64,000 nt of DNA from an uncultured Candidatus Saccharibacteria bacterium (GTDB taxonomy: Bacteria; Patescibacteriota; Saccharimonadia; Saccharimonadales; JAGQNJ01), in contig CAZPAW010000001.1 of the NCBI GenBank assembly GCA_964584895.1, positions 197,053-261,052 of the forward strand, in the 5' to 3' direction. The notes below the pieces were generated by a model. It saw nothing but the letters and a program-made list of their open reading frames with translations, did no database searches and was not told where the DNA came from. Numbering within the stretch: position 1 is the stretch's first letter; every line of letters starts with the position of its first letter. Position numbers and translations under genes: made by a program. Positions 5,571-62,596 of the stretch are shown in pieces.

Positions 5571-5573
5571 ACA

Positions 5574-5602
5574 TTGCATAAGCATACAAAAGGTGATATA
5601 AT
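5574..5602 (+). promoter_or_regulatory. sigma70-like promoter: TTGCAT, 17-nt spacer, TATAAT
   Basis: Read directly: TTGCAT at 5574-5579, TATAAT at 5597-5602, upstream of the 5609 ORF. Confidence 0.5.
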
Positions 5603-5608
5603 AGATTT

Positions 5609-14537: not shown

Positions 14538-14608
14538 TAATCAAAAAAATATGCAAATTTTACTTCTTGAGAATAAGTACTTATGGTAATATTAACCTAA
14601 GGAAAACT

Positions 14609-17203: not shown

Positions 17204-17262
17204 CGTATACTTCACAGCCCCTATTATTATTGCTAGAATATAGATAAGAGAGGACAAAAATA

Positions 17263-17775
17263 ATGGATGATTTTAAACGTGTTGATGTAACTACAAAACC
17301 TAAGGTTCCGAGTCCCACAACCGAGAAGAAAGTAAAAAAGCCTGGGAAAAAGCGTCGTCTGCCGAAAGCAAGCACGATTATCATTACGGTACTATTATTT
17401 GCCCTAGCTGGTGGCGGATATTATTTTTACAGTAAATATAGCGAAACAAAACAAGAGGTAGAAAAACTGTCTACTGTTCAAGGCCAACAGGAACTTAACA
17501 AATCCCAGACGGAGCAACTGCTAAGTGAAATGCGTAGTATCATAGTCCTACCTGCTGGGGAGGACCCCGTTGTGGCTACAATTACTGACATAAATCAGCT
17601 CAAGAAAAACGAATTCTACAAGGACGCACAAGATGGAGACCGGGTCATCGTCTTTGCTACCGCCAAAAAGGCATATATTTACAGGCCTAGCACAAGAACC
17701 ATAGTAAATGTAGGCGCTTTTCAGCTAGATCAACAAAGCCAAAAACAACCCAGCCAAGACAATACCACTAATTAG
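17263..17775 (+). CDS. small membrane-anchored hypothetical protein (basic N-terminus, one TM, extracellular tail)
   Basis: 170-aa ORF with AGGAC-type RBS. 'KKVKKPGKKRRLPK' followed by a TM. Sits between two giant surface-protein genes. Confidence 0.5.
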   Translation: MDDFKRVDVTTKPKVPSPTTEKKVKKPGKKRRLPKASTIIITVLLFALAGGGYYFYSKYSETKQEVEKLSTVQGQQELNKSQTEQLLSEMRSIIVLPAGEDPVVATITDINQLKKNEFYKDAQDGDRVIVFATAKKAYIYRPSTRTIVNVGAFQLDQQSQKQPSQDNTTN

Positions 17776-17834
17776 AAAGCCTTTTCTGGCTACTTTCAAG
17801 TTTTGACGTAAGCGTTTCTATAGTATAATTAAAC

Positions 17835-20800: not shown

Positions 20801-22934
20801 GGATGGTGAGGCTGATTTGGGCAATGGCATGAGCGGAATATCGGCTGACGCTACTTCCAGCGTGTCCTATATTGGTGGGCTAACTAGCGGAGAGCGTAAT
20901 ATTATATCTGGTAACGACAGCGATGGTATATATTTGGCCGATGGAACTGGCGATACCAGAATCCGCGGTAACTACATTGGCGTTGATGCTACAGGGGCAG
21001 TAGACCTAGGTAATACAGATGATGGAATAATTGCTGGCTCGACCGACATTATTATCGGTGGAACAGCAAGTGGAGCACGAAACGTTGTATCCGGGAATGG
21101 TGCAGAGGGTATAGAATTATCTTCTACCGCAACAACTGCTTTGGTCCAAGGTAATTATATTGGACTTAGCGCTAGTGGCAGTAGCGGTATCGGGAATACT
21201 AATATTGGTCTTAGCACAATGGGTATCAATACGATAGTTGGCGGTACGGCAAGCGGGGCAGAAAATGTCGTCTCAGATAACGGTGCTGGTGGAATTTCGG
21301 TCGATGGCGACGATACGACAGTAATCGGAAACCTAGTCGGAACAAGCGCAGATGGCTTGAGTGAAATTGGCAATACTAGTGTTGGTATTAAATCTGGTGG
21401 TGACAATGTAATTATTGGCGGAGATTCAGCCACCGAGCGTAATGTAGTAGCCGGCACAATAGTAGGTGGAAATTATGCTGGATCAGGTATCGTTCTGCTC
21501 AGTTTTGGATCAGGCGGAAGTGGTGGGGTTGTTAAGGGTAATTACGTTGGGACAAATATTAACGGTACAGTTGGTGGCGGGTTTGGCAACGGCGGATTCG
21601 GAATATTCGCAATCGGGGACTATTCAAATGGAGTTATCGGCGGTACAGCTAGTGGCGAGGGTAACAAAGTTGTGAGTAGCGGAATGAACGGAATAGGCGC
21701 GAACGGGTTCGCTGGCTTTGGTCTGTACACGAATAATATATCAATCTTAGGTAACCAAGTATATCAAAGTACCTCGACCGGCATTAGATTAATGGCAGAT
21801 ACTAATGGTGATTTTCAACCTGATACTCCGATTCCGTTCCCCAATGATGCGGGCGATGGTGATGTTGGGCCTAATGATTATCTTAACTTCCCAGTTCTTA
21901 ATAGTTCTTCGGCTTCTGCGGGCTCGTTGGATGTTAATTTTGATCTAGATATTCCTAATACTAATACTGGAGTAACCGGCTATAGACTAGAGTTTTTTGC
22001 TAACGACACAGGTGATGCGTCCGGTAATGGCGAGGGGCAGATATATCTTGGTTCGGCAAATGTGTCAGGAGATGTATCAAGCCATTCGGAGACAATAACT
22101 TTAGATCCTGGTGTCATCACCACCGGTGACTACGATATTTCGGCAACTGTCACTGAAATCGATGGTAGTGCTGATGGGTTTGGATCGACTAGCGAGTTTA
22201 GTGCATTCCTAGATAACCAAGAGATTATTCAGCCACTAGATAATGACGATGACGGAGTCAATGATGCTGTTGAAGATGCTGGCCCTAATGGTGGCGATGG
22301 TAATGACGATGGAACGCAGGATAGTGAACAAGCTAGCGTGGCAACAATTCTTGATGCCGAAAGCGACGATTACGTTACACTAGCACTTGATTCGGCTGGC
22401 GTGTGCGATCAGATAGATGATTTTGCATCAAAGCTTGAAAGCGAGCTATCTGAATCTGACCCTGACTTTATCTATCCGCTAACACTAGTAGAATTTACTA
22501 TTCCGTGTGAAGACAGCGTAGATGGAACATTATTCTGGCACGGCGAGGAAGAGTTCACTACTCAAATCTATCGTAAATTTGGCCCGACCACACCTGGCGA
22601 TGTTTCTTCGACAAGTTGGTACACGTCTGAACAATTTATAACGAGCACTGTAGATATTGACGGGAATGCTACAGCAACAGCTTCATTTACGTTGACCGAT
22701 GGTGAAGCAGGTGACGATACAGGCAATGATAATGTAATTGTAGATGCCAATGGTCCAGGCCTAGAAGTAGAAACAACTGACTCTGTAGTAGATAGTATCT
22801 CTAGCGCTGTATCAGACGCACTGTCGGCTACTGGAATGAACCAATACGGCATTTATGCAATAGCCGGCGCGTTAATTATCGGTGGATCGGTGTTTATTGT
22901 AAAACGAAAGTATCAAAGCAGAACTTCAAAGTAA
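17835..22934 (+). CDS. 1699-aa giant surface protein: two CTLREA-type N-terminal modules plus long parallel beta-helix (PbH1/NosD-like) repeat arrays, with C-terminal LSATG sorting signal
   Basis: Signal peptide. 'DGECTLREAIVASN' at residue ~50 and again at ~720. Dozens of 'N.ISGN...G(I/V)' beta-helix repeats. C-terminal 'LSATGMNQYGIYAIAGALIIGGSVFIVKRKYQSR'. Confidence 0.75.
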   Translation: MNQRVMIKTLSKHKKYLFFGIIMLVVFAVPITRVNAAATITVNSTADDQNNDGECTLREAIVASNTDTASGAAVGECTAGSGADTIEFDISGTGLKTIHISSGMPTITRTVTIDGYTQTDAVVNNADFPDAMNGTLTVEIDAAGESGIYGFDINGSQADGTVIKGLIVNDIPYETFYLTDVDNVSLEGNYIGTSSTGTVADGGSSHGVRIGGSSTGNMIGGATAAKRNVISGNGNTGVLFYGSALTTGNFVQGNFIGVGADGTTRIGNSQQGVASSEGPTGNIIGGDGVGEGNVISGNGGIGVYLSGTGGANTVQGNHIGTNAAGSAGVYNGQGGIVVSNADSNTIGGSIVGARNVISGNSAHGISIIDDSDNNDISGNYVGVGSDGSTAMPNGVHGLLIEGGSGSNTIGGTSSGERNIISGNSEAGVFISGPTVNSNIVQGNYIGTDDTGAVDVGNGSYGLVLDNSPSNTVGGTTGVTVGGDCTGSCNVISGNGDDAIWLYGDSADNNVIKGNHIGTNVAGTGDLGNGGRGVNITFSADGTLVGGTTASDANLIRFNDVRGVSIPNSGSINNAIIGNSLYQNAISNIDLSEDGVTANDANDADNGPNDLLNYPEWGLFDDDSGDTEVTYDLDVPAGDYRIETFSDNGKTLVDSQNITHTGSGAESFSNTITGNNYSNLRMTATEIDGGLSSGFGSTSEYSEAYSDGTEIITVNSTADDSNDDGECTLREAITAANDNTESGISDGECIAGAATDTIEFDIAGAGPHTIQPGAALPSITADGTTINGYSETGAVENSGDYSACFVGTIMIEIDGQNAGSVSGLTISAENVTIRGLAINRFTYSGVYIGSASGTVVAGNILGLDDAGLVDHGNGDAGVDIRSTGDTLIGGTTAADRNLISGNEGFGGISSYADTGTITISGNCIGTDATGDTAIPNNHSGINLYQAEANMVIGGDTTHERNIISGNDENGISISESNVGDIKGNYIGVDADGEADLGNGMSGISADATSSVSYIGGLTSGERNIISGNDSDGIYLADGTGDTRIRGNYIGVDATGAVDLGNTDDGIIAGSTDIIIGGTASGARNVVSGNGAEGIELSSTATTALVQGNYIGLSASGSSGIGNTNIGLSTMGINTIVGGTASGAENVVSDNGAGGISVDGDDTTVIGNLVGTSADGLSEIGNTSVGIKSGGDNVIIGGDSATERNVVAGTIVGGNYAGSGIVLLSFGSGGSGGVVKGNYVGTNINGTVGGGFGNGGFGIFAIGDYSNGVIGGTASGEGNKVVSSGMNGIGANGFAGFGLYTNNISILGNQVYQSTSTGIRLMADTNGDFQPDTPIPFPNDAGDGDVGPNDYLNFPVLNSSSASAGSLDVNFDLDIPNTNTGVTGYRLEFFANDTGDASGNGEGQIYLGSANVSGDVSSHSETITLDPGVITTGDYDISATVTEIDGSADGFGSTSEFSAFLDNQEIIQPLDNDDDGVNDAVEDAGPNGGDGNDDGTQDSEQASVATILDAESDDYVTLALDSAGVCDQIDDFASKLESELSESDPDFIYPLTLVEFTIPCEDSVDGTLFWHGEEEFTTQIYRKFGPTTPGDVSSTSWYTSEQFITSTVDIDGNATATASFTLTDGEAGDDTGNDNVIVDANGPGLEVETTDSVVDSISSAVSDALSATGMNQYGIYAIAGALIIGGSVFIVKRKYQSRTSK

Positions 22935-23009
22935 GCGGTATTAGTAGTTGTAATATTAGTTAAACTGACAGATAATATACATAAGCATTTTATAAGGGGA
23001 GTTAGAATT

Positions 23010-25469
23010 GTGGGAGTAGGTTTATCCCAGATTGTAGATAATCAAAATAATAAATTATTTGCGATATCGTTATTACTCGGCGTCAGTATAATCTCGGTGT
23101 TAATCTTTAGCGGACAAGTAGTTAGGGCTGCTGCAGATACTTGTACCTGGACGGGCTCTGGAGCAGATACGAATATTAGTACAGCTGGAAATTGGAGTGG
23201 GTGCGATAATGGCAATGTCCCTCAGGACGGGGACACACTAGTATTCCCATCTGGCCCCACTAACAAAGCAGTTACGGTTGACTCGGATATGGGATTTAAT
23301 GGTATTACATTTAATGGTAGTGGTTACACTGTTGCATCTGTGGCGTTTGAATCTCTCGGTGTCTATACCAGCCTGACTATTAGTGGCAACAACAACATAT
23401 TTAGTGGATATGTTCGGTTATATCCAACAACCACAGCCACCATAAATCACAGTGGTACTGGGACAAGTTTTTCTCATTATATTGTCATACAACCTTTAGC
23501 TGATAATACGGATGTTGTATTGAACACTGTAACAGACCTAGCTGTTCCAATGATTTCACAGACTGCGGTAGGGGCTGGAAGTTCAGTCGACACAGTCGCA
23601 AAATCAGGTGCTGGGACGCTAGATATCACTGGGACTGCGATTTCAGGTGTTATTACTAGCGGTGGTATTCACATTGAAGAAGGTCGCTGGCAATGTGATT
23701 CAACAAATTGCCTTGGCAATAGTGCAAACGAAATTATCCTAGATGAAGGTGGCGATGAAGACGGTGCTGAACTAAAGATTAATCATGGCGGAACAGTCAG
23801 TAACCCTATTACTTCTGCAGCGGTCACGGGAGAAAACGGCTCTGTAATTATTTCTGCAAGCGCGACACTAAATGGCGATATTACTGTCACTGATAGTTTG
23901 AATATGTTTGTGACTGGCTCTACAAGTGCCAATATTGATTCTGATATAGCGGTCGCTGATGGCAAAAATCTTGTAAGTTATGGCTCGGAAGGTTATGCGA
24001 CAAACGCTTACGATTACGGCGGTATCATATCTGGCGATGGGGGTTTGATTATTGATAATGCCCATGTGACGTTGAGCGGAATGTCTAATACTTATACTGG
24101 TTCGACAGAGCTAAATAACGCCGCATTGCTTACCGTGACAAATAATAATTCACAGGGCGCACAAACATCAGGAACTGTCGTCAATAATGGCACAACACTA
24201 GAATATGACGCAGGGAGTAGCATCGGTTTTGGAGAGCCAATTACTGTTGAGGGTACTGGTGTGGGTGGTAGCTATCCGGGAGCGTTAGTTAAAACTGGTC
24301 AAAACATGCAGATTGAAGGTGGTATTACCTTGACTGATGATACAACGTTCCATAATGCGACAAGCGAGTTATTTGAAATCACCTCTGTAATTACCGGTAA
24401 TTATAACTTAACATTAACTAACGTCGAAGACGATGGTGGATTCAATATGCAACCAGGTGCGGAAAATTACTTTGGTAACCTAATTGCAACCGGTACAGAA
24501 CTCACGATAGCAGGTTCTGGCAATACAGCGATTCCAAATAATCTAACCATCAATGCTGTAGACGGCAAGTCTTCTTATGTACTATTAAACAGCGACAATG
24601 TCATTGCAGATGATTCGGTAATTACGCTTAATAACGATAGTACCGAAATCGCCAAACTGATAAGCAGTGGAGTAGCGGATTCAGTAGGCACAATTATAGG
24701 CGACGGCACCATTTCGATGCTGGATTCTGATTCACGCTTTAACATTGGATACGGCGACACTGACGGCACTTTTGAAGGTGTTGTAGAAGGCTATACTAAT
24801 TCTCAATTTCAGATCACTGATGGTATATGGACCTTTTCTGGTGATAATACGGACGTTGGTAATGGGTTCTCTAGTTACTATGTTAACGGCGGGAAATTTG
24901 TTGCTGATGCTATTAATACAAGTCTTGGATTCTCCCCGTTTAGCATTAGCTCGGGTGTGCTGGGCGGAACCGATGTAATAGGGCAAGTCAGCGTATATGG
25001 TGGTACAATCGCCCCTGGAAACAGCCCAGGTTGCTTAAACCCTGCCGGTGACGTGGCCTTTACAGATGAGCTTTCTATTTTGAATGTCGAGCTTAACGGC
25101 ACTACTGTCTGCAGTGAATATGACAAGCTTGCAGCCAGTGGAATTGTCTACCTTAATGATGCGACGCTAAATGTAGACTTAGGTTTTGTTCCATCAGCCG
25201 GCGACACATTTACAATTGTAGAGGGTTCTTCAATTGTTGGTACATTTTCTGGTCTTGCTGATGACGATACATTTACTGTTGGCAGCAGAACAATGAAGAT
25301 TAACTACAATGCTACTTCGGTTGTTGTAACTGATGTCACAGCAGATTCAGCAAGCTCTTCAACAACAGATTCGTTAGCAAATACAGGTGTTAGCCAACTG
25401 TTCTTTTTTGGTTTAGTAATTGTATTATTTGGTGGGTCAGCTCTGGTACTCAAGAAGAAAAATCTGTAA
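23010..25469 (+). CDS. autotransporter-passenger-like surface protein (PATR repeats, pertactin-like beta-helix) with LANTG sortase signal in place of a beta-barrel
   Basis: GTG start after a GGGGAG RBS. 'CTWTGSGADTNISTAGNWSG...VPQDGDTLVF' (PATR). 'GGTIAPGNSPGCLN' SPG motif. C-terminal 'LANTGVSQLFFFGLVIVLFGGSALVLKKKNL'. Confidence 0.65.
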   Translation: MGVGLSQIVDNQNNKLFAISLLLGVSIISVLIFSGQVVRAAADTCTWTGSGADTNISTAGNWSGCDNGNVPQDGDTLVFPSGPTNKAVTVDSDMGFNGITFNGSGYTVASVAFESLGVYTSLTISGNNNIFSGYVRLYPTTTATINHSGTGTSFSHYIVIQPLADNTDVVLNTVTDLAVPMISQTAVGAGSSVDTVAKSGAGTLDITGTAISGVITSGGIHIEEGRWQCDSTNCLGNSANEIILDEGGDEDGAELKINHGGTVSNPITSAAVTGENGSVIISASATLNGDITVTDSLNMFVTGSTSANIDSDIAVADGKNLVSYGSEGYATNAYDYGGIISGDGGLIIDNAHVTLSGMSNTYTGSTELNNAALLTVTNNNSQGAQTSGTVVNNGTTLEYDAGSSIGFGEPITVEGTGVGGSYPGALVKTGQNMQIEGGITLTDDTTFHNATSELFEITSVITGNYNLTLTNVEDDGGFNMQPGAENYFGNLIATGTELTIAGSGNTAIPNNLTINAVDGKSSYVLLNSDNVIADDSVITLNNDSTEIAKLISSGVADSVGTIIGDGTISMLDSDSRFNIGYGDTDGTFEGVVEGYTNSQFQITDGIWTFSGDNTDVGNGFSSYYVNGGKFVADAINTSLGFSPFSISSGVLGGTDVIGQVSVYGGTIAPGNSPGCLNPAGDVAFTDELSILNVELNGTTVCSEYDKLAASGIVYLNDATLNVDLGFVPSAGDTFTIVEGSSIVGTFSGLADDDTFTVGSRTMKINYNATSVVVTDVTADSASSSTTDSLANTGVSQLFFFGLVIVLFGGSALVLKKKNL

Positions 25470-25678: not shown

Positions 25679-25754
25679 GGGGCTGTAGCTCAGGGGTTAG
25701 AGCAGTCGGCTCATAACCGATTGGTCGCAGGTTCAAATCCTGCCAGCCCCACCA
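25679..25754 (+). tRNA. tRNA with CAT anticodon, elongator-type (Met, or Ile2 if lysidine-modified); CCA encoded
   Basis: Cloverleaf read directly: acceptor GGGGCTG/CAGCCCC, D-arm GCTC-AGGGGTTA-GAGC, anticodon loop CTCATAA, T-arm GCAGG-TTCAAAT-CCTGC, then A-CCA. C11:G24 is the elongator type. Confidence 0.8.
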
Positions 25755-40693: not shown

Positions 40694-41044
40694 ATGGTAG
40701 AAGAAAAAGGTGAAAAGTTAAAACGTCAACCAGACCCAACTCCAGAAGATAGAGTATTTTTAAATGAAATCGTGCAATCACATCTCGGAGAGAGAGCAAC
40801 TGGAGAATTCTTTGGGGTTATGTCGCGCGGTGTTAGGGGAGACGAAGGTCATTATGGGCACGCGGTTTTGGTCGTAGACCCTGATATTGCTGAGCGATTT
40901 AGTCAAGATCCAGAAGGTTATCCAGACCTTTTAGCGACCATGTCTACCACTATCACTAATAAGATTAAAGTTGCTGGTAATGTAATTATAGATTTAGCAG
41001 GTCACGCTTTTGATAGTAAAACCGCGAATAGATCTAATAAATAA
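40694..41044 (+). CDS. hypothetical protein
   Basis: 116-aa ORF, His-rich core 'GHYGHAVLVVDPD', no recognisable domain. Confidence 0.4.
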   Translation: MVEEKGEKLKRQPDPTPEDRVFLNEIVQSHLGERATGEFFGVMSRGVRGDEGHYGHAVLVVDPDIAERFSQDPEGYPDLLATMSTTITNKIKVAGNVIIDLAGHAFDSKTANRSNK

Positions 41045-41066
41045 TGGATTATAATAAATTCAAAGT

Positions 41067-41327
41067 ATGGCCAAGAATATGAAGTCTACCCAAGAAGAGC
41101 AATTAGAGCTAGGCAAAAAGCTTCAGCAATTTTATGATTCAGGATATATAAATAAAAAGCAAACATTATTATTTTCGTTTTATAAAGGCATAGCATCAGG
41201 ATTTGGAGTTGTTATAGGAGGCACGATTGTAATCGCTTTACTTATATGGCTGCTTGGTCTATTTGATGAACTGCCTTTTTTAGGCGATCTAGTAGATTCC
41301 ATCAACAGAACAATTCAATCAAAATAA
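41067..41327 (+). CDS. small membrane protein
   Basis: 86 aa. Amphipathic N-terminus then a TM 'GVVIGGTIVIALLIWLLGLF'. Confidence 0.45.
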   Translation: MAKNMKSTQEEQLELGKKLQQFYDSGYINKKQTLLFSFYKGIASGFGVVIGGTIVIALLIWLLGLFDELPFLGDLVDSINRTIQSK

Positions 41328-41489
41328 TCATAATATTTTATCGACGATGCCGAAGTATTTCTTGGTTATCTATAAATTGTTGTAGTGCGGATCTTCAGCA
41401 CTATATAAAAGTAAAAATTTCTAATCAGCCAATCATAATAAAAAGTCTAGAGATAAAATATGTCGAGTTATGTAGTCAAGACTATTATT

Positions 41490-42038
41490 TTAGCTCGCCC
41501 GATTTCCGTTGGGTTGAATTACCCACCATAGTCCGCCATGGGTGCTGATGTTGTGGCATTTTACTTCACCTGGTTTTTCATGAGCATAATAGTATAACGG
41601 GTGATTGTTATAGGTAACTTGGGTAGTACCGTCAGTCCGCTCGGTAGTGCCTAGTAATTTTTCATTTACTTCACCGGACGCTATTGGAGTCCCGTTGGTA
41701 AGTACAGGTGGCCATGCTTCGGCACAATCATCGTAACATTCGGCTTTTTTTGATTCCTCTAATTCCCATATGTATATTGCTTGATTATTGTCATCGAAAA
41801 GCATTGTGCCAAAATCACTTTCGCCGGTCGTAATAATTGTTCCTTTAGATTTTTTCACTGAATCATCAGAACTTGTTTTTGGTTGCACTTCTTGTTGTAC
41901 TGTTTGTTTTTCTGCAGTAGGTTCTGATTCATTATTGTTATTTGTGTATACTTTGTACCCGATAAAACCTAATGCACCAACTAAAACAATTATCAGAACA
42001 ACACCGATTATTCCAAAACCTTTATTTCGTGATACCAT
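41490..42038 (-). CDS. secreted-repeat protein (COG4315 / PF03640-like lipoprotein repeat)
   Basis: N-terminal TM. 'CYDDCAEAWPPVL...GTTERTDGTTQVTYNNHPLYYYAHEKPGE..C......GGLWWVIQPNG' matches the family consensus. Confidence 0.65.
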   Translation of the reverse strand: MVSRNKGFGIIGVVLIIVLVGALGFIGYKVYTNNNNESEPTAEKQTVQQEVQPKTSSDDSVKKSKGTIITTGESDFGTMLFDDNNQAIYIWELEESKKAECYDDCAEAWPPVLTNGTPIASGEVNEKLLGTTERTDGTTQVTYNNHPLYYYAHEKPGEVKCHNISTHGGLWWVIQPNGNRAS

Positions 42039-42235
42039 ATTCTACCCTTAATTTATCTTGTTAATAGTAATGACTATTATAAACAATAATTTATATGTAG
42101 CCCAATTCAAGGTATGGTTTTTTACCAGCTTGTTGGCTATTGTTTTTGTAAGGTTCTAAATATTGTATTGAATCAACTGCTTATAAAATCTTTTGACAAT
42201 AAATAAAAACACCGTAAATAAATTGATTTAGATTA

Positions 42236-42694
42236 TTATCGGCCAATGTCAGAAATATTTTCGTAGTACGAGCCAGCATCTGGGAAATTATTATCTATTC
42301 TATCAACAAATTTTTTTGAAAAACCAAACTTAGTTAGCTCATTTATAGGAATAAATTTTACTGTGTGTAATTTATTTGATTCCGAGTCAGTAAGTTTTAA
42401 ATTTTGGCCAGGTTTTCCTGATATATATTTACATTCTAAAAAAACGTTAATAACGTGTTTATTTTCTAAAAATCTCTCGGCAATATATAACAGTCTTGTT
42501 GATTTTACTTTAAGACCGGTTTCTTCTTTGACTTCACGTTCAACGGCTTCCATGATTGTTTCACCCTCTTCAACTTTGCCCCCTGGTAATGACCAAAATG
42601 TATCCATGTCGGAGAACGATTGTTTTATCAATAATAATTTATTGTCATATATGCAGACGGCTGTAGCGCGAATAACCATATCAATACTATACAT
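42236..42694 (-). CDS. NUDIX hydrolase
   Basis: Nudix box 'GGKVEEGETIMEAVEREVKEETGL'. Confidence 0.8.
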   Translation of the reverse strand: MYSIDMVIRATAVCIYDNKLLLIKQSFSDMDTFWSLPGGKVEEGETIMEAVEREVKEETGLKVKSTRLLYIAERFLENKHVINVFLECKYISGKPGQNLKLTDSESNKLHTVKFIPINELTKFGFSKKFVDRIDNNFPDAGSYYENISDIGR

Positions 42695-42743
42695 CCACTC
42701 GCGAAACTGAAGGGTTAATTGTGTCCCTGATGCTTTAAGATTA

Positions 42744-42771
42744 GGACGTAGTGCAAGGGGAGCCGACTAGC
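42744..42771. repeat. degenerate copy (D) of the conserved intergenic/leader element family (see 43445..43600)
   Basis: 'GGACGTAGTGCAAGGGGAGCCGACTAGC' aligns with 'GGATGGAGCTTAGTGCTAGGAGAGTTGACTAG' of copies A-C. Same position relative to flanking genes. Confidence 0.35.
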
Positions 42772-42789
42772 TAAAAATATATATCTCAG

Positions 42790-43437
42790 TTATAGAAATT
42801 TTATAGAGTTAACAATACTTTCAAATTCTTGAGTAAGATTTGACGCATCAAAATCATATTCATTGTTTGTAGTATTGTTGCTGTAACTTTCTCTGAAGCT
42901 AAGTGTCACCAAATCCTTGCCATTTAATACCCTATACTCAATATCCTTATATTTTTCGGCCTCACTAGGGCCAACAAAATCGGTCGTATGCTTTAGCGCC
43001 TTATATCCATCTATTGTCACTTTTTCGTAGGTATTAAATTGGTCTTTATCGATATCATCGATTTCTTTTTCTATTGTTGTGTCTACATCAGTAAAACCAT
43101 AGATGAACACTTCGGCTTTTTGATTATCTTTATTGCGAAGTGTTATGGGTTGCGTATCTTTGGTCCAATCAGGAGTTGGCTTAGTAGGTCCATCGGTGTC
43201 TGGTTCTTCGTATGGTATTTTTGACCAAGTATTTGGGTATTCGACAGAAAAAGTTTTCGAAGAGTCTGTTATTTCTGATTTAGTAGAGCTTGGTGTCGTA
43301 TTAGTAGAATTATATGAATTATCACTATCACTCCTATTATTTACGACATACCACCCAACACCTGCAATTAATCCAACAATAACAAATATTAGTAATCCCT
43401 CTACTACACTAAAGCCTTTGGTGTTCAACTTTTTCAT
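42790..43437 (-). CDS. type IV pilin-like protein
   Basis: Class III signal 'MKKLNTKG|FSVVEGLLIFVIVGLIAGVGWYVV' followed by a 180-aa Ser/Thr/Asn-rich domain. Confidence 0.65.
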   Translation of the reverse strand: MKKLNTKGFSVVEGLLIFVIVGLIAGVGWYVVNNRSDSDNSYNSTNTTPSSTKSEITDSSKTFSVEYPNTWSKIPYEEPDTDGPTKPTPDWTKDTQPITLRNKDNQKAEVFIYGFTDVDTTIEKEIDDIDKDQFNTYEKVTIDGYKALKHTTDFVGPSEAEKYKDIEYRVLNGKDLVTLSFRESYSNNTTNNEYDFDASNLTQEFESIVNSIKFL

Positions 43438-43444
43438 TTCTTAG

Positions 43445-43600
43445 TTCCTGCTTATGCTTATTAAATCAAGATTAATTATATACCTATTTCAATATAAAAG
43501 AGCTCCTTTTGTAGAGACCAAAGTGCTAATGTTTACACAGGTGTGTTCGTCCGCTATACAACGGATGGAGCTTAGTGCTAGGAGAGTTGACTAGAGGTGG
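43445..43600 (-). promoter_or_regulatory. copy A of a ~155-nt conserved leader/intergenic element (includes RBS and 5'UTR of the downstream minus-strand gene, plus a covarying hairpin)
   Basis: Aligns with copy B (44139..44281) at ~75% over ~155 nt, including 'CATAAGCAGGA' directly before the ATG. Hairpin TCCGC-N7-GCGGA (A/B) versus CTCG-N8-CGAG (C) shows a compensatory change. Confidence 0.5.
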
Positions 43601-43614
43601 AACAGATTATTTCG

Positions 43615-44121
43615 TCACTCTATTGAATTTTCTTGAATTTTACCTTTTGAATCTTCACACTCAGGTTCAGCAATCTTATTAATATTATATTTCTCTAGCT
43701 GTTGACAGAGAGGATTTTCTCCGCTTCCGCTATACTCAGTCGGCGGTATCAATGTCCAGTCGCCATTATCCTGTTTTACTGCAACAATAGTAACTTCTTC
43801 AATTAAATTATCTGAGCATCCATATGACATCCTAGCATATCTATCGTCAACATTAGCTTGTACTGCGTATAGTGCTACTCCGTCGGGTGTGTCTGTGCCT
43901 CGATATTGTTTACAGTCATCGTCAGAGTTCTTTTCAAGATAAGATTCTAGTCCTGACGGTATAACAACACTATCATCGACTGCCCAAACCTTTACATTCT
44001 CACTATCTTTATTTAAAAGGTTATTAGTTAGATAACCCAATGCGAAAGCTGTAACTACTATTGCTAAAAGTATTAAATAATTTTTTGACCGCATTGTATT
44101 CTTCTTTTTTGGTTTTGGCAT
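43615..44121 (-). CDS. hypothetical secreted/membrane-anchored protein
   Basis: 168 aa, basic N-terminus plus TM, 4 Cys in the C-terminal domain. Confidence 0.5.
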   Translation of the reverse strand: MPKPKKKNTMRSKNYLILLAIVVTAFALGYLTNNLLNKDSENVKVWAVDDSVVIPSGLESYLEKNSDDDCKQYRGTDTPDGVALYAVQANVDDRYARMSYGCSDNLIEEVTIVAVKQDNGDWTLIPPTEYSGSGENPLCQQLEKYNINKIAEPECEDSKGKIQENSIE

Positions 44122-44138
44122 TTTTTTGGTCCTGCTTA

Positions 44139-44281
44139 TGTTATTAAATTAAGTATAAGTATACTCCTATTTTTCATAAAAAACTTATATTTTTACAGAG
44201 GCCAAAGTACTAATGGTAAACAGGTGTATTCGTCCGCCATACAGCGGATGGAGCACTATGCTAGAAGAATTGACTAGGTGG
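44139..44281 (-). promoter_or_regulatory. copy B of the conserved leader/intergenic element
   Basis: Alignment to copy A is given in that entry. Sits upstream of an unrelated gene (43615..44121). Confidence 0.5.
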
Positions 44282-44287
44282 AAAGAA

Positions 44288-44719
44288 CTAGCTCTGGCTA
44301 TCTAGGTATTCTTGCAAGCCTTTAAGCCAGCCTCCCGTAAAGTATTCTTCGGGTTTGAAAGTTGCAATATCTACCCACTCATACTTATCGTGGTTGCCGC
44401 CGAGTTTGATGTCTCCGTTTTTGTATATTGCATCGTAACCGACTGCAAAAATTCGTACAGGTAGCTTAGTTGTGTGCTCAGTTCTTTCGTGCCTAAAGAA
44501 TATTACTGGCTTTTCGAGCTCATACTCTACGTCATGGCCCAACTCTTCATTTATCTTACGTTTAACAATTTTCTCAAGAGGCTTCTCGAATTCGTCGGGT
44601 TTAATGCGTCCACCAGGAATATCCCATTCACCGAAGACATCATGTGTTATCAAAAGGTTGCCACCCTTCCGAAGCAGTACCTTTACTGCAATGTGATAAA
44701 GGTCTTTTGGCTCATTCAT
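44288..44719 (-). CDS. NUDIX hydrolase
   Basis: 'GGRIKPDEFEKPLEKIVKRKINEELG' Nudix box. Confidence 0.75.
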   Translation of the reverse strand: MNEPKDLYHIAVKVLLRKGGNLLITHDVFGEWDIPGGRIKPDEFEKPLEKIVKRKINEELGHDVEYELEKPVIFFRHERTEHTTKLPVRIFAVGYDAIYKNGDIKLGGNHDKYEWVDIATFKPEEYFTGGWLKGLQEYLDSQS

Positions 44720-44794
44720 ATCATCATAATACCAAAATCAAGAAAAGAGACATCTACTTATTACAGAACTCACAGTGTTTATTGTTGGTTGCCT

Positions 44795-44843
44795 AGGTAC
44801 GCTCGGATTGGAACGAGTTGCTAGGAGAGTTGACAGGATGGAC
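44795..44843 (-). promoter_or_regulatory. partial copy C of the conserved element (hairpin plus 'TTGCTAGGAGAGTTGACAGGATGG' core)
   Basis: Core aligns with copies A and B. The stem carries compensatory substitutions. Confidence 0.4.
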
Positions 44844-44857
44844 ACCGACTTAACCAG

Positions 44858-45595
44858 TCATAAATACTTTGTAATTAATTTCTCTAGTGATTCTTCTACG
44901 GCTTTTATTGCTTCTGGATAAAGCCTGTAATCGTGTGTGCAATCAATCTCAAGAAAAATCTTTGGTTCAGATAATTCATCAAAGATTTCTTTAACACGAC
45001 TAGACGGCACAAATTTGTCCTTTGTTGCATACACCAATAGTTTTGCACCCTTAAAGTTTTTCAAAGCTTGTATGGGGTCATGTTTGGCACCGTCTTCAAA
45101 GTATTTCATAGGAAGACTAAACTTGCGTTGTTCTTTGGTTCTTTTGTTTCCTGGTGGAATGTCTCGTGATTCTTGTAACGTATTGTTTTTGATTTTTTCT
45201 AGTTCAGGCGCTGACGGCTTGCCGTAAGCTGCATTAATAAGTGCCAATCCTATAACAGAAGGGTTGTCTGAAGCTAGCATTGCGGTTGCACCACCACGAC
45301 TATGCCCTAATAGTAGAGTAGGGCGATTACCTAGCAAATCTATAAGCTCATTGATTGCATTAATGTATGTAGTAGTTGTGTAGTTTTCTAATTCGCCTAG
45401 GCTATCCCAAGTTCCTGGTGCATCAATTGCGATAGCGTAATAACCGTGCTTAGCAAAGAAGTCAAGGTGACTAACAAAGTTTGCATAATCTTTCGTATCA
45501 AGACGGCCTGGCATCAATATGGCGACCTTGGTCGCGTCAGTGTCTCCAGCTTCGTTGGCTGCGATTGTAAAGTTCTTGGTTTTAATCAGTTTCAT
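44858..45595 (-). CDS. alpha/beta hydrolase (dienelactone-hydrolase/esterase-like)
   Basis: Nucleophile elbow 'GHSRGG', 'ILMPGRLD' oxyanion region, 245 aa. Confidence 0.7.
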   Translation of the reverse strand: MKLIKTKNFTIAANEAGDTDATKVAILMPGRLDTKDYANFVSHLDFFAKHGYYAIAIDAPGTWDSLGELENYTTTTYINAINELIDLLGNRPTLLLGHSRGGATAMLASDNPSVIGLALINAAYGKPSAPELEKIKNNTLQESRDIPPGNKRTKEQRKFSLPMKYFEDGAKHDPIQALKNFKGAKLLVYATKDKFVPSSRVKEIFDELSEPKIFLEIDCTHDYRLYPEAIKAVEESLEKLITKYL

Positions 45596-45657
45596 ATTTC
45601 AATAATAACAGAGAGACTAAAAAGACCCCAGCTTCCTAGGGTCATAGTGCTTATGCT

Positions 45658-45732
45658 TGGTTGCGGGACCAGGACTCGAACCTGGGACCTCGTGGTTATG
45701 AGCCACGCGAGCTGCCGCTGCTCCATCCCGCA
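45658..45732 (-). tRNA. tRNA-CAT with initiator-like features (candidate tRNA-fMet)
   Basis: Read on the minus strand: TGCGGGA-TG-GAGC-AGCGGCA-GCTC-G-CGTGG-CTCATAA-CCACG-AGGTC-CCAGG-TTCGAGT-CCTGG-TCCCGCA-A-CCA. Features: weak U1-A72 pair, A11:U24, two G:C pairs closing the anticodon loop. Confidence 0.75.
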
Positions 45733-45831
45733 TATCGTCTGGATGACGATCAAAAACTATCCAGAGCAGTTCAAATACTAACATTACAGATAACAGATGT
45801 CAATAAGCATGCTATGAAATAAAAAAAGTAT

Positions 45832-45860
45832 TTGACAAATTAAAGTTCTTATGTATAATG
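45832..45860 (+). promoter_or_regulatory. near-consensus sigma70 promoter TTGACA, 17-nt spacer, TATAAT in a gene-poor region
   Basis: Exact hexamers read directly, followed by an A-rich leader and an AAGGAG RBS. Confidence 0.6.
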
Positions 45861-45931
45861 TTAAGTACAGTTTTAAATTAAAACAAAACAAAAAATTAAC
45901 AAACTAACAAAACAAAAAAGGAGTCCGAAAA

Positions 45932-46009
45932 ATGGGCGATCTTACTTATGAAGTTGTCGAGACAGACAACGTAGCAATAAGAGAAGTAGACAGCATACTT
46001 TTCAGTTAA
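45932..46009 (+). CDS. candidate 25-aa small ORF (MGDLTYEVVETDNVAIREVDSILFS) behind the strong promoter and a consensus RBS
   Basis: AAGGAG 9 nt upstream of the ATG. Acidic peptide. No homology assessable by eye. Confidence 0.35.
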   Translation: MGDLTYEVVETDNVAIREVDSILFS

Positions 46010-46088
46010 TTCATCAAGAGCTAAAGCTCTAAAAAACGATGGGCTAGCCGGTGCAAAAAATGTACCGGCTATTTTTGGTAACAACAAT

Positions 46089-46181
46089 ATGTTGTCAGGC
46101 TGGAGTTTGCCTTGTTGTTTTATCAGCACTATTATCGGAATTTGGGTTGGTTATAAGGTTGGACAATATATATACGACTAA
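46089..46181 (+). CDS. candidate 30-aa hydrophobic peptide (MLSGWSLPCCFISTIIGIWVGYKVGQYIYD), type-I-toxin-like
   Basis: Single predicted TM with an aromatic/charged C-terminus. The frame is open from 45990. No obvious SD. Confidence 0.25.
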   Translation: MLSGWSLPCCFISTIIGIWVGYKVGQYIYD

Positions 46182-46281
46182 ATATCTTTTCTATTGCGAG
46201 CTAAAGCTCGCGCTTTAAATACTTTTTACCTGAAAAAGTAGTAGCAAAAGCAGGCAAGCGGCTGAAAGAACAAGATGTTAA

Positions 46282-46389
46282 TTTTAGTAATATGTATCGT
46301 GCCTGCGGAACGTAAGCGATCCGATTCATTAATTCTAGAGTAAGGAATCGGATTAGTCCTCGGCATTGACCCGATACATATTACTAAAA
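46282..46389. repeat. nested perfect inverted repeats: outer 18 bp (TTTTAGTAATATGTATCG / CGATACATATTACTAAAA) and inner 9 bp (ATCCGATTC / GAATCGGAT) with symmetric 18-nt internal loops
   Basis: Read directly. The 108-nt element could form a long stem-loop in RNA or a cruciform in DNA. Confidence 0.6.
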
Positions 46390-46514
46390 TTAAATCTGTT
46401 TTTCAGAGCTTGGAAACTAAGCGATAATTTACTCATCAATTTCTGGTCATTGTCCAGAGAATAATAATGAAACATTACGTTGATTTGGGTATCTTTTAAC
46501 AGACTAGAATTAGC

Positions 46515-46949
46515 CTAATCAGTTTTGAGCCAGTTTTCGAGTGATTTTAAGTCTGGAAAAATCTCATCAAAAATACCATACAGAGTTTCTGTCTTTTCTG
46601 GTATGCCCAATGCATAACATTTTTTGCCCATGCCATATGCTGCACCAGCCTCTATGTGTCCAGAGATCCCCGCTGGTAAAACTAATAGGAAGTTATCGCT
46701 ATCTCGTTGAGCCTGCATATCATTTTCGAAAATATGTCTTATGAAATCATCGTCTTTGGGTAGCGATTCGAGCGTTTGCATAATCGACTCAATGCTAGCA
46801 TCTTGTTTGAACTCAACTTTCGATCCCTTATACAAGTTCTCAATGAAACAATAGGCAACTTTGTTGTGAGCTCTTACAGAATCAAGGGCTTTTTTTACTT
46901 CTGGATAATTTCGCCAACGTCCAACTATGAAGAAATCGTACTTTGCCAT
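46515..46949 (-). CDS. nucleoside 2-deoxyribosyltransferase-like protein (Rossmann-like)
   Basis: 'FLLVLPAGISGHIEAGAAYGMGKKCYAL' resembles the 'DsGTafEiGyAyalGKPv' motif of PF05014-type proteins. Confidence 0.55.
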   Translation of the reverse strand: MAKYDFFIVGRWRNYPEVKKALDSVRAHNKVAYCFIENLYKGSKVEFKQDASIESIMQTLESLPKDDDFIRHIFENDMQAQRDSDNFLLVLPAGISGHIEAGAAYGMGKKCYALGIPEKTETLYGIFDEIFPDLKSLENWLKTD

Positions 46950-47318
46950 GGAATAATTATATCAATTTAGTTGATGAAGGCTCTAACTTACTAATTGGTC
47001 AACCTAACTCATATGGATATGGAATGACTTTGTTGGGTATCTGACTGATCCTAAACAGATGTTGTGAAAAAAAGGTGACCTTGGACGCGAGGACTGTTTG
47101 AGATATGAATTTGCTTAGTAGCATATTCATATAGAGTTCCACAGAGAGCTAACTTTATACTAACAGATATATAAAGACTGTGTAGTAAGTCCGAGCTTTT
47201 GGTTTACTTTGGGCGGTTAAAAGTAATAAATTAATAGTTTTTAATAAAATAGATATGCCTACATTGAATCTAGTAACTTGGGTTGAGATGTGGTATATTT
47301 ACCCCTGTCGGTAACTAT

Positions 47319-47395
47319 GTCGGTGTAGCTCAGTTGGTTAGAGCGCAGGACTCATAAGCCTGAGGTCGTTGGTTCAATTCCAACCACCGACACCA
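47319..47395 (+). tRNA. tRNA with CAT anticodon, elongator-type (Met or Ile2-lysidine); CCA encoded
   Basis: GTCGGTG-TA-GCTC-AGTTGGTTA-GAGC-G-CAGGA-CTCATAA-GCCTG-AGGTC-GTTGG-TTCAATT-CCAAC-CACCGAC-A-CCA. C11:G24. A31/G39 mismatch at the loop-proximal pair. Confidence 0.75.
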
Positions 47396-47445
47396 AAAAA
47401 AGTTTTGCAAAGATTAAAATGCTGATGGTATAATAAAGTCTCAGT

Positions 47446-48105
47446 ATGGCAACAACCCAAAGTCCAGCTGAAACAGGTTCATCTCCGCAAGGAGATGTTT
47501 TTTTATCACAAGATTATTTAGGCCAAATACCTCCTCAAGTTCATGAAAATAGATTTTCACGACAGTTGCACGACTTAACTACTTTGGATATTGTGCGCAG
47601 TGACGTCGCGGTTGCCACGCAGACTCTCAACGGCGAAAGAACATTTAGATATGACGCATGTGGTGTTTTGATCTCGGGCTTGAAAGAAATTACAGATACA
47701 ATTTTTAGAGCAAGAGAAGGTGTGCTCGAGATTGAGGCAAAAGGCCTATTCAGGTTGGGCCGAGGGTTGTCTAGACTTTTCGAGGAATATGGTGTGGGTG
47801 AAAATGATGATGATGACAGCTTCCTTAGAATGCCGGTTGAGCGTATTACTGATGTGAGGCCTGGTTATGGCACAGGTCGAGTCCTAAATAGGGATATGAT
47901 TGTATATAATCCGTTTTTGGATTTGAGAATACAATTTGAAGATGATCTTGCTCCAGCAAATGTTGGGGTTTCTCCTCATCTCAAACATCTTTTTAGAGAA
48001 GACAGGCCAGGGGAATTTCATAGGATAGGATTAGCAGGTATTACAAGATTGAGTTTGCTTGAGCCAATGGAGTCGTTGAGAGCAAGGACTAATCCTGTTA
48101 AATGA
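47446..48105 (+). CDS. hypothetical protein, first gene of a coupled two-gene cassette
   Basis: 219-aa ORF, no recognisable motif. Stop overlaps the next start (ATGA). Confidence 0.5.
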   Translation: MATTQSPAETGSSPQGDVFLSQDYLGQIPPQVHENRFSRQLHDLTTLDIVRSDVAVATQTLNGERTFRYDACGVLISGLKEITDTIFRAREGVLEIEAKGLFRLGRGLSRLFEEYGVGENDDDDSFLRMPVERITDVRPGYGTGRVLNRDMIVYNPFLDLRIQFEDDLAPANVGVSPHLKHLFREDRPGEFHRIGLAGITRLSLLEPMESLRARTNPVK

Positions 48106-48680
48106 CCGAGTCCAAATCTGTCGATACACCGCCCAATGAAGGCGGTATTTTTTTGTCAAAAGAAGAATATGAAAAAGTAAGCGAGCTAGTCGCCGAATTC
48201 CCAAGAATAGCAGACAAAGGATTACAAAAACGGCAGGCCTATCCTTTTATTAATTTGTATCTGATCATGTGGATTCTGTCGCGAGAAAAACGATCTAATA
48301 ATCAAGATGGCTTTGATCGTGAGCCCTATCGTGATTTTTGTAGGAATTGGATGCAACAAATGAGAGAAGAGGCCCTATATCCAATCGATGTTTCTGGAAT
48401 CGTAAGAAGAGTGTCATCCATCTTCCAAAACAGACTACTATACTCCAGTAGCGTCGATGACGCCCCAGTAATTTTTGATCTTGCGGGCAAAGAGTACATA
48501 GCCTTATGCCACCCATCGCTTAAATCATTGTATCTATGCACAGAGGAAGAAGGTACTGGTAGAATCGTTAGTTTTACGGAAGCACAGTTGTCGGCTGAGC
48601 ATGATCGATCAGCACGCTACGCTAGTACCGAGGACCACATAGCTTTTTTGAGCGCCTGTGTTTTATCTGTTGAATTCTGA
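48102..48680 (+). CDS. hypothetical protein, second gene of the cassette
   Basis: 192-aa ORF, no recognisable motif. Translationally coupled to 47446..48105. Confidence 0.5.
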   Translation: MTESKSVDTPPNEGGIFLSKEEYEKVSELVAEFPRIADKGLQKRQAYPFINLYLIMWILSREKRSNNQDGFDREPYRDFCRNWMQQMREEALYPIDVSGIVRRVSSIFQNRLLYSSSVDDAPVIFDLAGKEYIALCHPSLKSLYLCTEEEGTGRIVSFTEAQLSAEHDRSARYASTEDHIAFLSACVLSVEF

Positions 48681-48693
48681 TACCATATCGATA

Positions 48694-49566
48694 ATGAAAA
48701 TCGTAATTAAACCAGGAAAATATATAGTTGCGGTTTCTGGTGGCGTGGATTCAATTGTTTTACTTGATTTGTTATCAAAAAACAAAGATCTTGAATTGGT
48801 AGTTGCACATTTTGATCATGGTATAAGACGAGAGTCTGAAAAAGACAAAAATTTTGTCGTTGAATTAGCTGGCCGATATGGGCTACCAATCCGAATAGGA
48901 GAGGGGAGGCTTGGTAGCGGTACTAGTGAAGAGCGTGCGCGGAGGACTAGATATGACTTCTTGCATGAAGTTATGAAAAGTGAAGGCGCCGATGCAATCA
49001 TAACTGCGCATCATCAAGATGACTTGGTTGAAACCGTAATATTCAATATCTTGCGCGGGACAGGTCGAAAAGGCATCACTTCGTTATCGAATAATAAAAA
49101 TATCCAAAGACCACTACTTGGTATAAGTAAAAATGAAATTATTAAATACGCCAAAACAAACAATCTTGCTTGGGTTGTAGATTCTACTAATTACGATACG
49201 CAATATACACGTAACTGGATCAGACATATTCTAATTCCAAAAATGGATGACGAGAAAAAAGATCAAATTTTAATGCTATATCAATCACATCAACCAATTA
49301 ATTCCGAGGTGGATGAGGCAATCAAGCGAATTATTGATTTTGAACAAGATCTAAAAAAATCAACCCTGTTGAACTTACCATATTCAATCAGTTGTGAATT
49401 GGTTGCGGGTTGGCTACGAGATAAGGGTTTGGCAGAATTTGACAAAAAAACAATAGACAGAATAGTGCGAGGCGTAAAGACTTTGCCGACAGGAAAAACT
49501 ATAGATATATATGATAATAATCAAGTTATTATTGGCGATAAAAAACTAGAAATAGTAAAAAGGTAA
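48694..49566 (+). CDS. tilS: tRNA(Ile)-lysidine synthetase
   Basis: PP-loop 'VAVSGGVDSIVLLDLL', 'DHGIRRESEKD'. Short TilS form (~290 aa). Start set at the MKIVIKPG Met; the ORF is open from 48658. Confidence 0.8.
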   Translation: MKIVIKPGKYIVAVSGGVDSIVLLDLLSKNKDLELVVAHFDHGIRRESEKDKNFVVELAGRYGLPIRIGEGRLGSGTSEERARRTRYDFLHEVMKSEGADAIITAHHQDDLVETVIFNILRGTGRKGITSLSNNKNIQRPLLGISKNEIIKYAKTNNLAWVVDSTNYDTQYTRNWIRHILIPKMDDEKKDQILMLYQSHQPINSEVDEAIKRIIDFEQDLKKSTLLNLPYSISCELVAGWLRDKGLAEFDKKTIDRIVRGVKTLPTGKTIDIYDNNQVIIGDKKLEIVKR

Positions 49567-62352: not shown

Positions 62353-62596
62353 ATATTTATATTAACACAAACTGACTAAACAGTCAATGTATGCACATGT
62401 GTGTGCTTGTGGTTATAATATATTTGAATTATGAAAAAGATAAAAAATAATCAAGAAGGTTTTATCCCGCTAATGATATTTATGATTTCAGTGCTTTTGT
62501 TTGCAATAATTTTTGTTTTTCTGAGAGTCATTAAGTCGACTTGAAAGGTTCGAAAATCATTGCATAAGTATATAAACAATGATATAATAATTTTTA

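Follow-up and report, generated by a model that had tools for sequence, protein, structure and literature searches.

In a 64,000-nucleotide stretch of DNA from an uncultured Candidatus Saccharibacteria bacterium (contig CAZPAW010000001.1, positions 197,053 to 261,052; hereafter the window), a repeated element separates a row of genes downstream of a tRNA-Met gene. Here, we show by sequence comparison that these elements originate from the 3' portion of the tRNA gene plus its flank. Rather than a leader RNA, they are probably the tRNA-anchored junctions of an insertion hotspot, and structures of this kind are known. The array is unusual in that each unit holds a single gene and in that no integrase was seen in the window or the related loci.

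From tRNA-Met(CAT), the genes on the minus strand are, in order, a hydrolase, a NUDIX protein of 143 aa (NUDIX-143), a 168-aa protein, a pilin-like protein and a second NUDIX protein of 152 aa (NUDIX-152), all co-oriented (Table 1). An earlier sequence-only reading of the window had proposed that they share regulatory leader elements. For comparison we use related loci, labelled L001 to L107, of which the contigs L001 to L005 belong to the same strain. Homologues of the window proteins carry the name Candidatus Saccharibacteria (Saccharimonadales) at NCBI, and the sole true match in our genome scan is a Saccharimonadales metagenome-assembled genome.

A family of repeated elements

The intergenic regions in front of the pilin-like gene (element A) and of the 168-aa gene (element B) are identical at 131 of 165 positions from end to end (79%), with a score 37 standard deviations above shuffled sequences, and they share an ungapped core of 61 nt that is 84% identical. 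The sequence-only reading had put the likeness at about 75% over the whole length, which agrees with this result, and it had placed the boundaries correctly: both elements begin 6–14 nt past the upstream stop codon and finish in CATAAGCAGGA, the ribosome-binding site (RBS) context ahead of the ATG. It had also listed a partial copy at 44795–44843, which is a real family member but not a 49-nt fragment; this element C runs at full length from 44720 to 44857 (nhmmer E = 1.5e-11) and aligns with A up to the -10 box (z = 11.6). A further partial copy, reported at 42744–42771, did not hold up statistically. The corresponding candidate element D (42695–42789) reaches z = 2.4 and 1.4 in alignments and E = 0.2 and 9.8 with nhmmer; it retains GTC..CT-N13-G in register.

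The genes behind the elements are unrelated, as had been claimed. The proteins downstream of A and B match with a BLASTP E-value of 1.9, and the two NUDIX proteins are remote paralogues only (29% identity over 63 aa), which rules out paralogy of the downstream genes as the source of the repeats; their similarity is not a by-product of coding-gene duplication. Ubiquity of the motif between genes, named beforehand as a finding that would speak against a specific element, was not observed either: the three sequence blocks of the elements have no other occurrence in the window. Dispersed small repeats, such as miniature inverted-repeat transposable elements (MITE), repetitive extragenic palindromes or BOX-like repeats, do not match this distribution: of the 64 kb, only the 3 kb that follow the tRNA contain copies, and the elements have none of the terminal inverted repeats that define a MITE. 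A small open reading frame (ORF) within the elements was ruled out, since the 1- and 2-nt insertions and deletions between A and B disrupt every frame. Resemblances to sigma-54 promoters and DnaA boxes, judged by eye, were too weak to pursue.

Derivation from tRNA-Met and its flank

A profile for nhmmer was built from the elements of L006, L016, L099, L103 and L105 only, with no sequence from the window and no true tRNA. Within the 64-kb window, this foreign profile detects C (E = 1.5e-11), B (6.9e-6), the 3' part of the tRNA with its flank at 45594–45681 (4.4e-5) and A (4e-4), and nothing further below E = 2. Its match to the tRNA begins at approximately tRNA position 52, in the T arm. When the window tRNA and flank are compared directly with C, the alignment (z = 8.6) starts near the anticodon loop, takes in GCAACCA and continues into the flank, and the two share a repeat of 23 nt, 83% identical, that includes GCAACCA. 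Among 1704 tiles ranked for similarity to the tRNA, C is the top-scoring one that is not itself a tRNA, and the tRNA flank matches the flank of C with z = 7.0.

The related loci carry the same type of repeat. In L016, a 55-nt repeat that is 84% identical spans the T loop, the acceptor end and the terminator of the tRNA (z = 19.7). In L006, 25 nt of the tRNA 3' end are repeated without a mismatch; block-1-like sequence (see below) precedes this repeat, and the flank that follows it matches the second element (z = 9.7). The acceptor end is GCAACCA in the window tRNA, in C, in the L105 tRNA and in L105b, and GCTACCA or GGTACCA in L006, L103 and L016, each element following the tRNA of its own host. 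Direct repeats of the tRNA 3' part, downstream of the intact gene and in its orientation, are thus present in the window, L006, L016 and L105, as in known tRNA insertion arrays. On a separate point, the tRNA-Met of L006 and its exact 25-nt 3'-end repeat (1170–1436) lie 167 nt apart with no ORF between them, and this interval may be a minimal or emptied insertion.

Each element is composed of three parts: a conserved block that is not tRNA (block 1), a decayed 3' portion of tRNA-Met, and a copy of the tRNA 3' flank. Block 1 covers approximately 20–40 nt, reads TTTCC.YCT.GTCAACT and is unlike tRNA. The worn tRNA copy ends at CCA and begins at the T arm or earlier, possibly at the anticodon loop. 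The third part contains the terminator and then a -10 box, to which A and B add a short 5' untranslated region (UTR) with a Shine–Dalgarno sequence; the flank of the intact tRNA (45596–45657) is homologous to the 3' parts of C, A and B.

In C, block 1 (44819–44836) is followed by a T-loop relic, TTCCAATCCGAG (44802–44813), and by an acceptor end, GCAACCA (44786–44792), identical to that of the tRNA; the flank with a terminator relic comes next, and then TGGTATTAT as the -10 box, 6 nt before the NUDIX ATG. B consists of block 1 (44259–44276), a hairpin insertion specific to A and B (44229–44251), the acceptor relic TTACCA (44214–44219), block 3 (44197–44215, a relic of the left arm of the terminator), the -10-like box TATACT and the 5' UTR with CATAAGCAGGA (44130–44140). 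The order is the same in A, with block 1 at 43576–43593, the hairpin insertion at 43546–43568, the acceptor relic GTAAACA at 43530–43536, block 3 at 43513–43531, a weak terminator relic at 43496–43519, TATAAT within 43475–43484 and the 5' UTR with CATAAGCAGGA at 43446–43456. Block 3 (CATTAGYACTTTGGYCTCT) preserves remnants of the flank and of the left arm of the tRNA's intrinsic terminator.

That terminator is intact behind the tRNA itself (45624–45643, hairpin of -14.2 kcal/mol) and in six copies from relatives, with intact hairpins ranging from -8.9 to -15.4 kcal/mol. In A only a weak form is left (-3.4 kcal/mol), and B and C no longer have it. Of the three candidates put forward by the sequence-only reading, a terminator–promoter cassette therefore comes nearest, in that the 3' two-thirds of the elements are tRNA flank with a terminator and then a -10 box, but the terminator has decayed in A, B and C.

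Comparison with related genomes

In the window, L006 and L016, the element lies 0.8–1 kb downstream of the same tRNA-Met, on the same strand. L103 and L107 (NUDIX identity 77–78%) have the real tRNA directly upstream of the NUDIX orthologue, the position at which C stands in the window, and the flank of C aligns with the tRNA flank of L107 (z = 7.1). Since the tRNA adjoins NUDIX there and the flanks align, the hydrolase of the window separates the tRNA from a displaced tRNA 3' half. Judging by the loci L099 to L107, the basal position of NUDIX-143 is directly downstream of tRNA-Met. L103 and L107 resemble an empty tRNA–NUDIX junction, but they are different species.

Gene content around NUDIX-143 is variable. 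The gene upstream of it is a hydrolase in the window, an APH kinase in L099 and a HAD gene in L105, and the genes downstream differ in each genome. L099 (85%) has the order APH kinase, element, NUDIX, element and then a convergent gene, and L105 (79%) has the tRNA, a short CCCGCAACCA repeat, the HAD gene, NUDIX, an element, other genes and a further element, in which CAACCAAGCATAAGC is identical to the flank of the window tRNA. Positional counterparts of B, after the NUDIX stop codon, are found in L099, L103 and L105. The closest relative, L099, is without the window segment that holds the 168-aa, pilin, second NUDIX and Lipoprotein_15 genes; there, the NUDIX element leads straight to the orthologue of window 40694–41044 (a 116-aa gene, 74.5% identity), at which synteny resumes, with the MFS, DUF7144 and trypsin-like genes. 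Variable content within kept flanking synteny is a mark of tRNA insertion arrays. The 168-aa protein has two homologues only in a database of 5.8 billion proteins. Its distant orthologue on L006 (54% identity) is also preceded by an element, and the spacer upstream of it keeps TTTCCGTCTAGTCAACT and GGTCTCT.

The constants across genomes are the position downstream of tRNA-Met and the orientation. Being the leader of a downstream gene, which the sequence-only reading took as the defining property, is not among them, as an element in L099 faces a convergent gene and the gene upstream of the L016 element is on the opposite strand. Copies within one genome are more alike (A and B, 74%; the upstream and downstream copies of L099, 65%) than positional counterparts in different genomes (54% for B against the downstream copies of L099, L103 or L105), which indicates recombination between copies. 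Distant genomes retain block 1 and GTTCCAAT.CGA, and an 8-bp palindrome, ATTCGAAT, occurs in L006 and L016.

Wider scans returned little. A genome collection searched with a block-1/T-loop pattern built from B, C and L006 gave 13 matches, one of them real (L016), while two metagenome scans gave 0 and 8 matches, all 8 by chance, and viral scans with block-1 patterns gave none. The 3' 25-mer of the tRNA has 62 matches in viral sequences; those inspected singly are complete phage tRNAs, the rest keep the anticodon loop upstream, and none has block 1. A parent phage or attP was therefore not identified.

Upstream of pilin homologues in other Saccharibacteria (L008–L015), the element was not found. 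These homologues adjoin repeats of the 3' ends of other tRNAs, with conjugation or defence islands alongside. In L008 (7555–9010) and L009, a 61%-identical pilin homologue is flanked by direct repeats of approximately 180–260 nt beside type IV secretion system and conjugation genes; the repeats open with the tRNA 3'-end-like ATTCCCCGTGAGGTCACCA in three copies, with no intact tRNA on the stretch examined. In L013 (3622–3947), a partial tRNA-Glu (5' part to anticodon arm, 24 nt, 96%) lies 251 nt upstream of an intact tRNA-Glu; the interval is G+C-rich and hairpin-rich in appearance, has no Rfam match, and 66 nt separate the tRNA from the start of the pilin homologue. L010 (1–8000), L011 and L012 have a pilin homologue at the edge of an island with a serine recombinase, an NgoPII-type restriction–modification pair and a SIR2/HerA-like defence pair. 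A 144-aa ORF of L010 and the 144-aa ORF beside the window tRNA proved unrelated. In L101 (2235–7843), five tandem pilin-like paralogues (208–246 aa, 35–62% identical N-terminally) surround the NUDIX orthologue.

An insertion model and its difficulties

We propose that DNA was inserted repeatedly into the 3' part of the tRNA-Met gene, leaving the elements as junctions. Each insertion would restore the tRNA and displace the previous 3' half and flank downstream, and an internal junction would then consist of the end of one insert, the core and the start of the next. The row would read tRNA, hydrolase, C, NUDIX, B, 168-aa gene, A, pilin gene and, possibly, D, with the intact tRNA as the attL-side copy, D as the outermost, attR-like end and block 1 as the conserved end of the incoming DNA (the element-side arm). 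This composition would account for the likeness of A and B along 165 nt, for the restriction of the tRNA's share to the 3' part and, should D be real, for its having the 5' part alone. The concept of sublocation, for crossover in the anticodon loop or the T loop, is reportedly that of Williams in 2002.

The junctions would be substrates for recombination, at which cassettes could be added, deleted or homogenised. We infer a site-specific integrase acting in trans as the putative agent; homologous recombination of excised circles could also serve. At present the junctions would serve at most as spacers with a -10 promoter for the gene that follows, to which A and B add an RBS.

Several observations weigh against this model. 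No integrase or recombinase domain was found with Pfam in the large ORFs of the window, and there is no integrase in the gene tables of L006, L099, L103, L105 and L107. The repeat-bounded units, at 572–872 bp with one gene each, are far below the usual size of an island, and the repeats run approximately 70–100 nt past the tRNA into the flank, beyond a typical att core. A and B by themselves show no significant similarity to the tRNA (z = 2.9 and -0.5), so that their tRNA origin follows from transitivity and from the profile. Block 1 is approximately 65–70% conserved between distant genomes, which plain decay does not explain and which hints at a present-day function. Finally, neither an excised circle nor a strain polymorphism was seen in the same-strain contigs L001–L005.

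A bolder version, to which we give a small chance, is that Saccharimonadales carry an integron-like gene-capture platform anchored at tRNA-Met. A cassette would then be made up of the tRNA 3' half, the terminator and promoter, the ORF and block 1. It would be excised as a circle between neighbouring junctions and re-inserted at the tRNA or any junction by a trans-encoded recombinase with block 1 and the T-loop relic as its recognition sites; GTTCCAATTCGAATG may be named beside block 1 as a candidate recombinase-binding sequence. Such a platform would explain the single gene per unit, the promoter-bearing junctions, the conservation of block 1 and the homogenisation within genomes.

Putative regulatory signals and alternative explanations

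The elements might instead be a shared cis-regulatory promoter, operator or leader RNA that co-regulates small secreted and accessory genes, their likeness to the tRNA flank being incidental or co-opted. Some of the signals agree with this: A and B share -10-like boxes and the identical CATAAGCAGGA context, TTTGGTAT.ATGAT stands right before the start codon in C, the tRNA flank and the L107 flank, block 1 and GTTCCAAT.CGA persist in distant genomes, and the palindrome ATTCGAAT is a candidate protein-binding site. The conserved 5' part, however, is not tied to the gene downstream, which is unrelated from copy to copy, convergent in L099 and otherwise arranged in L016. The -10-like region of the sequence-only reading exists in A, B and C, but a strict sigma-70 scan found no -35/-10 pair in any of the three, and the distance from block 3 to the -10 box ranges from 13 to 32 nt. 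Nor is there a conserved RNA structure, covariation or an Rfam match, and with no further copy in the 64 kb the element is not regulon-wide. We therefore regard common regulation as an unlikely origin of the repeats, although the promoter and RBS function of their 3' parts is plausible from the motifs present.

The -10-like boxes TATTAT (45596–45605, 7 nt before the hydrolase ATG), TGGTATTAT (44720–44733) and TAGTAT (42695–42710) stand 4–7 nt before the ATGs of the hydrolase, NUDIX-143 and NUDIX-152, with no Shine–Dalgarno sequence, an arrangement that suggests leaderless mRNAs for these genes. A and B instead have a 5' UTR of approximately 35 nt with AGGA. Elsewhere in the window, a 37-nt promoter-like sequence (CATTGCATAAG...TGATATAAT) is common to the spacers at 5572–5608 and 62558–62594, with 81% identity. 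GCATAAG occurs also after the CCA end of the tRNA and before the RBS in A, and it may be a common promoter or UTR word of this genome.

Local segmental duplication without any mobile element is, in our view, similarly doubtful. Tandem copies of a truncated tRNA-Met with its flank would have arisen, by unequal crossing-over for instance, followed by decay and gene conversion, and the unrelated genes would have reached the intervals by other means. The inclusion of the flank, with terminator and promoter, in the repeats, the homogenisation of copies within genomes and the lack of an integrase all fit. Against this, 12 of 12 copies are without the 5' half of the tRNA and have the same non-tRNA block 1 in its place, for which a recombination junction is the better fit. 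Duplication also leaves unexplained why each interval holds a different, unrelated gene and why the tRNA stands exactly one gene farther away than in L103 and L107, and the pristine 25-nt repeat beside a decayed one in L006 points to separate events.

A structured non-coding RNA, be it a riboswitch, thermometer, attenuator or small RNA, formed by block 1, the hairpin and block 3, is largely refuted, and we consider it highly improbable. It would draw on the 6-bp hairpin of A and B, TCCGYT-GTAT-RGCGGA, in which two changes (G.U to G-C and U-A to U.G) preserve pairing in the transcript sense only. Both changes are one-sided, and the covariation that was to be looked for across the aligned copies is missing, with no double-sided change. 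The hairpin sits in a lineage-specific insertion of 12–13 nt, which is absent from five of nine copies (C, L006, L016, L103 and L105), and in the two L099 copies that have it, 4 of 12 cells are unpaired. The compensatory change claimed for C is no such thing: C is without the insertion, and its CTCG...CGAG maps to other, non-homologous alignment columns. RNAalifold finds no conserved pair in four copies or in nine, no covariation is seen among copies, and neither strand folds more stably than shuffled sequences, as RNA or as DNA (z from -1.0 to +1.1). Rfam searches returned tRNAs and chance matches only for window 41000–47500 (E ≤ 10) and tRNAs only for seven related loci at gathering score, so the proposed riboswitch, thermometer or attenuator leader is not borne out.

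An integron array in the strict sense, with the repeats as attC sites, is suggested by one co-oriented ORF per 0.57–0.87-kb unit and a repeated element between units, but it has almost no chance of being correct and membership is refuted, as the elements form neither a long imperfect inverted repeat nor a bottom-strand hairpin, no inverted repeat spans an element, an R''/R' core pair is missing, the window has no intI-like gene, DNA folds of both strands are at shuffle level, and the cassettes have their own -10 boxes.

Gene row and neighbouring features

The features of the array are collected in Table 1. A 1:72 mismatch in the orthologues of relatives suggests that the tRNA at its head is an initiator tRNA. 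It is one of three tRNA(CAT) genes inside 22 kb (25679–25754, plus strand; 45658–45732, minus strand; 47319–47395, plus strand), which presumably encode the initiator, elongator Met and Ile2 tRNAs, and a TilS-like PP-loop gene (48658–49566, plus strand) lies near them. NUDIX-143 has 390 homologues at E < 1e-10. Farther away, at window 11595–25469, four very large ORFs (980, 895, 1699 and 819 aa) have internal repeats approximately 190 nt apart (GG.N.I.GN-like) and probably encode giant surface proteins.

Table 1. Features of the array downstream of tRNA-Met, in transcript order (window coordinates)
Feature	Position	Strand	Evidence and remarks
tRNA-Met(CAT), intact	45658..45732	-	ARAGORN; Rfam tRNA, 64.4 bits; orthologous tRNA in L006 and L016
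3' flank of tRNA-Met	45596..45657	-	AAGCATAAGCACT, terminator 45624–45643, -10-like TATTAT; terminator scan
Alpha/beta hydrolase, 245 aa (putative cassette gene 1)	44858..45595	-	Pfam
Element C	44720..44857	-	Profile; alignment to A and to tRNA plus flank
NUDIX hydrolase, 143 aa	44288..44719	-	Pfam; widely conserved Saccharimonadales gene
Element B	44122..44287	-	Alignment to A; profile
Membrane-anchored Cys-containing protein, 168 aa (putative cassette gene)	43615..44121	-	Without Pfam family
Element A	43438..43614	-	Alignment to B; profile
Type IV pilin-like protein, 215 aa (putative cassette gene)	42790..43437	-	G/FSVVE prepilin motif (cleavage mark as slash)
Possible degenerate distal copy D	42695..42789	-	Block-1-like TAGTCGGCTCCCCTTGCA, spacing kept; without statistical support
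Second NUDIX, 152 aa, after D	42236..42694	-	Pfam

Significance and comparison with known systems

Saccharibacteria are episymbionts with very small genomes, and their routes of gene acquisition are poorly known. The analysis replaces a candidate new riboswitch or leader with a documented origin, the 3' half of a tRNA plus its flank, and it identifies the region downstream of tRNA-Met as a small hotspot of gene gain and loss in a Saccharibacteria clade. Its cargo consists of surface and accessory genes (pilin-like, secreted Cys protein, NUDIX and hydrolases), which plausibly serve in host interaction. If the single-gene units are mobile, they would form a minimal cassette system distinct from integrons.

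The closest parallel is with the ssrA genomic islands of Dehalococcoides, which are arranged in tandem; 3'-end repeats bound them, a conserved non-ssrA motif lies beside these repeats, and the insertion point is in the T loop (PMC3146451). As there, a single intact RNA gene is followed by several co-oriented repeats of its 3' part, the boundary of the likeness to that gene falls at approximately the T arm, and a conserved motif foreign to the RNA gene, here block 1, is found just upstream of each repeat. Accessory genes between the repeats vary among strains in Dehalococcoides, and content varies among relatives here. The present array differs in having single-gene units of 0.57–0.87 kb instead of multi-kb islands, in that no integration module was found in the units or nearby, in its decayed repeats that extend into the terminator and promoter flank, and in that one cargo gene, NUDIX, is a widely conserved gene of the lineage.

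Integrase-less, att-bounded remnants known as cis-mobilizable elements (CIMEs), and site-specific accretion at tRNA loci, have also been described (Pavlovic 2004; Bellanger 2011; reviewed in PMC5704250). As in CIMEs, att-like repeats bound segments that are without integrase or transfer genes, whether lost or never present, in a tandem arrangement at a tRNA 3' end. An integrase in the island or next to the tRNA is needed for an autonomous island or an integrative and mobilizable element and is absent by definition in a CIME; none was found in the window or the related loci. In contrast to CIMEs, no functional integrative and conjugative or mobilizable partner was seen at the site, the segments are much smaller and their mobility is putative.

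Integron cassette arrays share with this locus the single co-oriented ORF per unit, the repeated junction and the variable content among relatives, whereas the junctions here are tRNA-derived and unstructured, not attC hairpins, bear promoter-like signals and come with no intI/attI platform that we could find. Ordinary terminator–promoter spacers resemble the 3' two-thirds of the elements, with a terminator or its relic and then a -10 box; unlike such spacers, the elements are paralogues of each other, copied from a single tRNA flank that is joined in them to a tRNA 3' half and to an additional conserved block.

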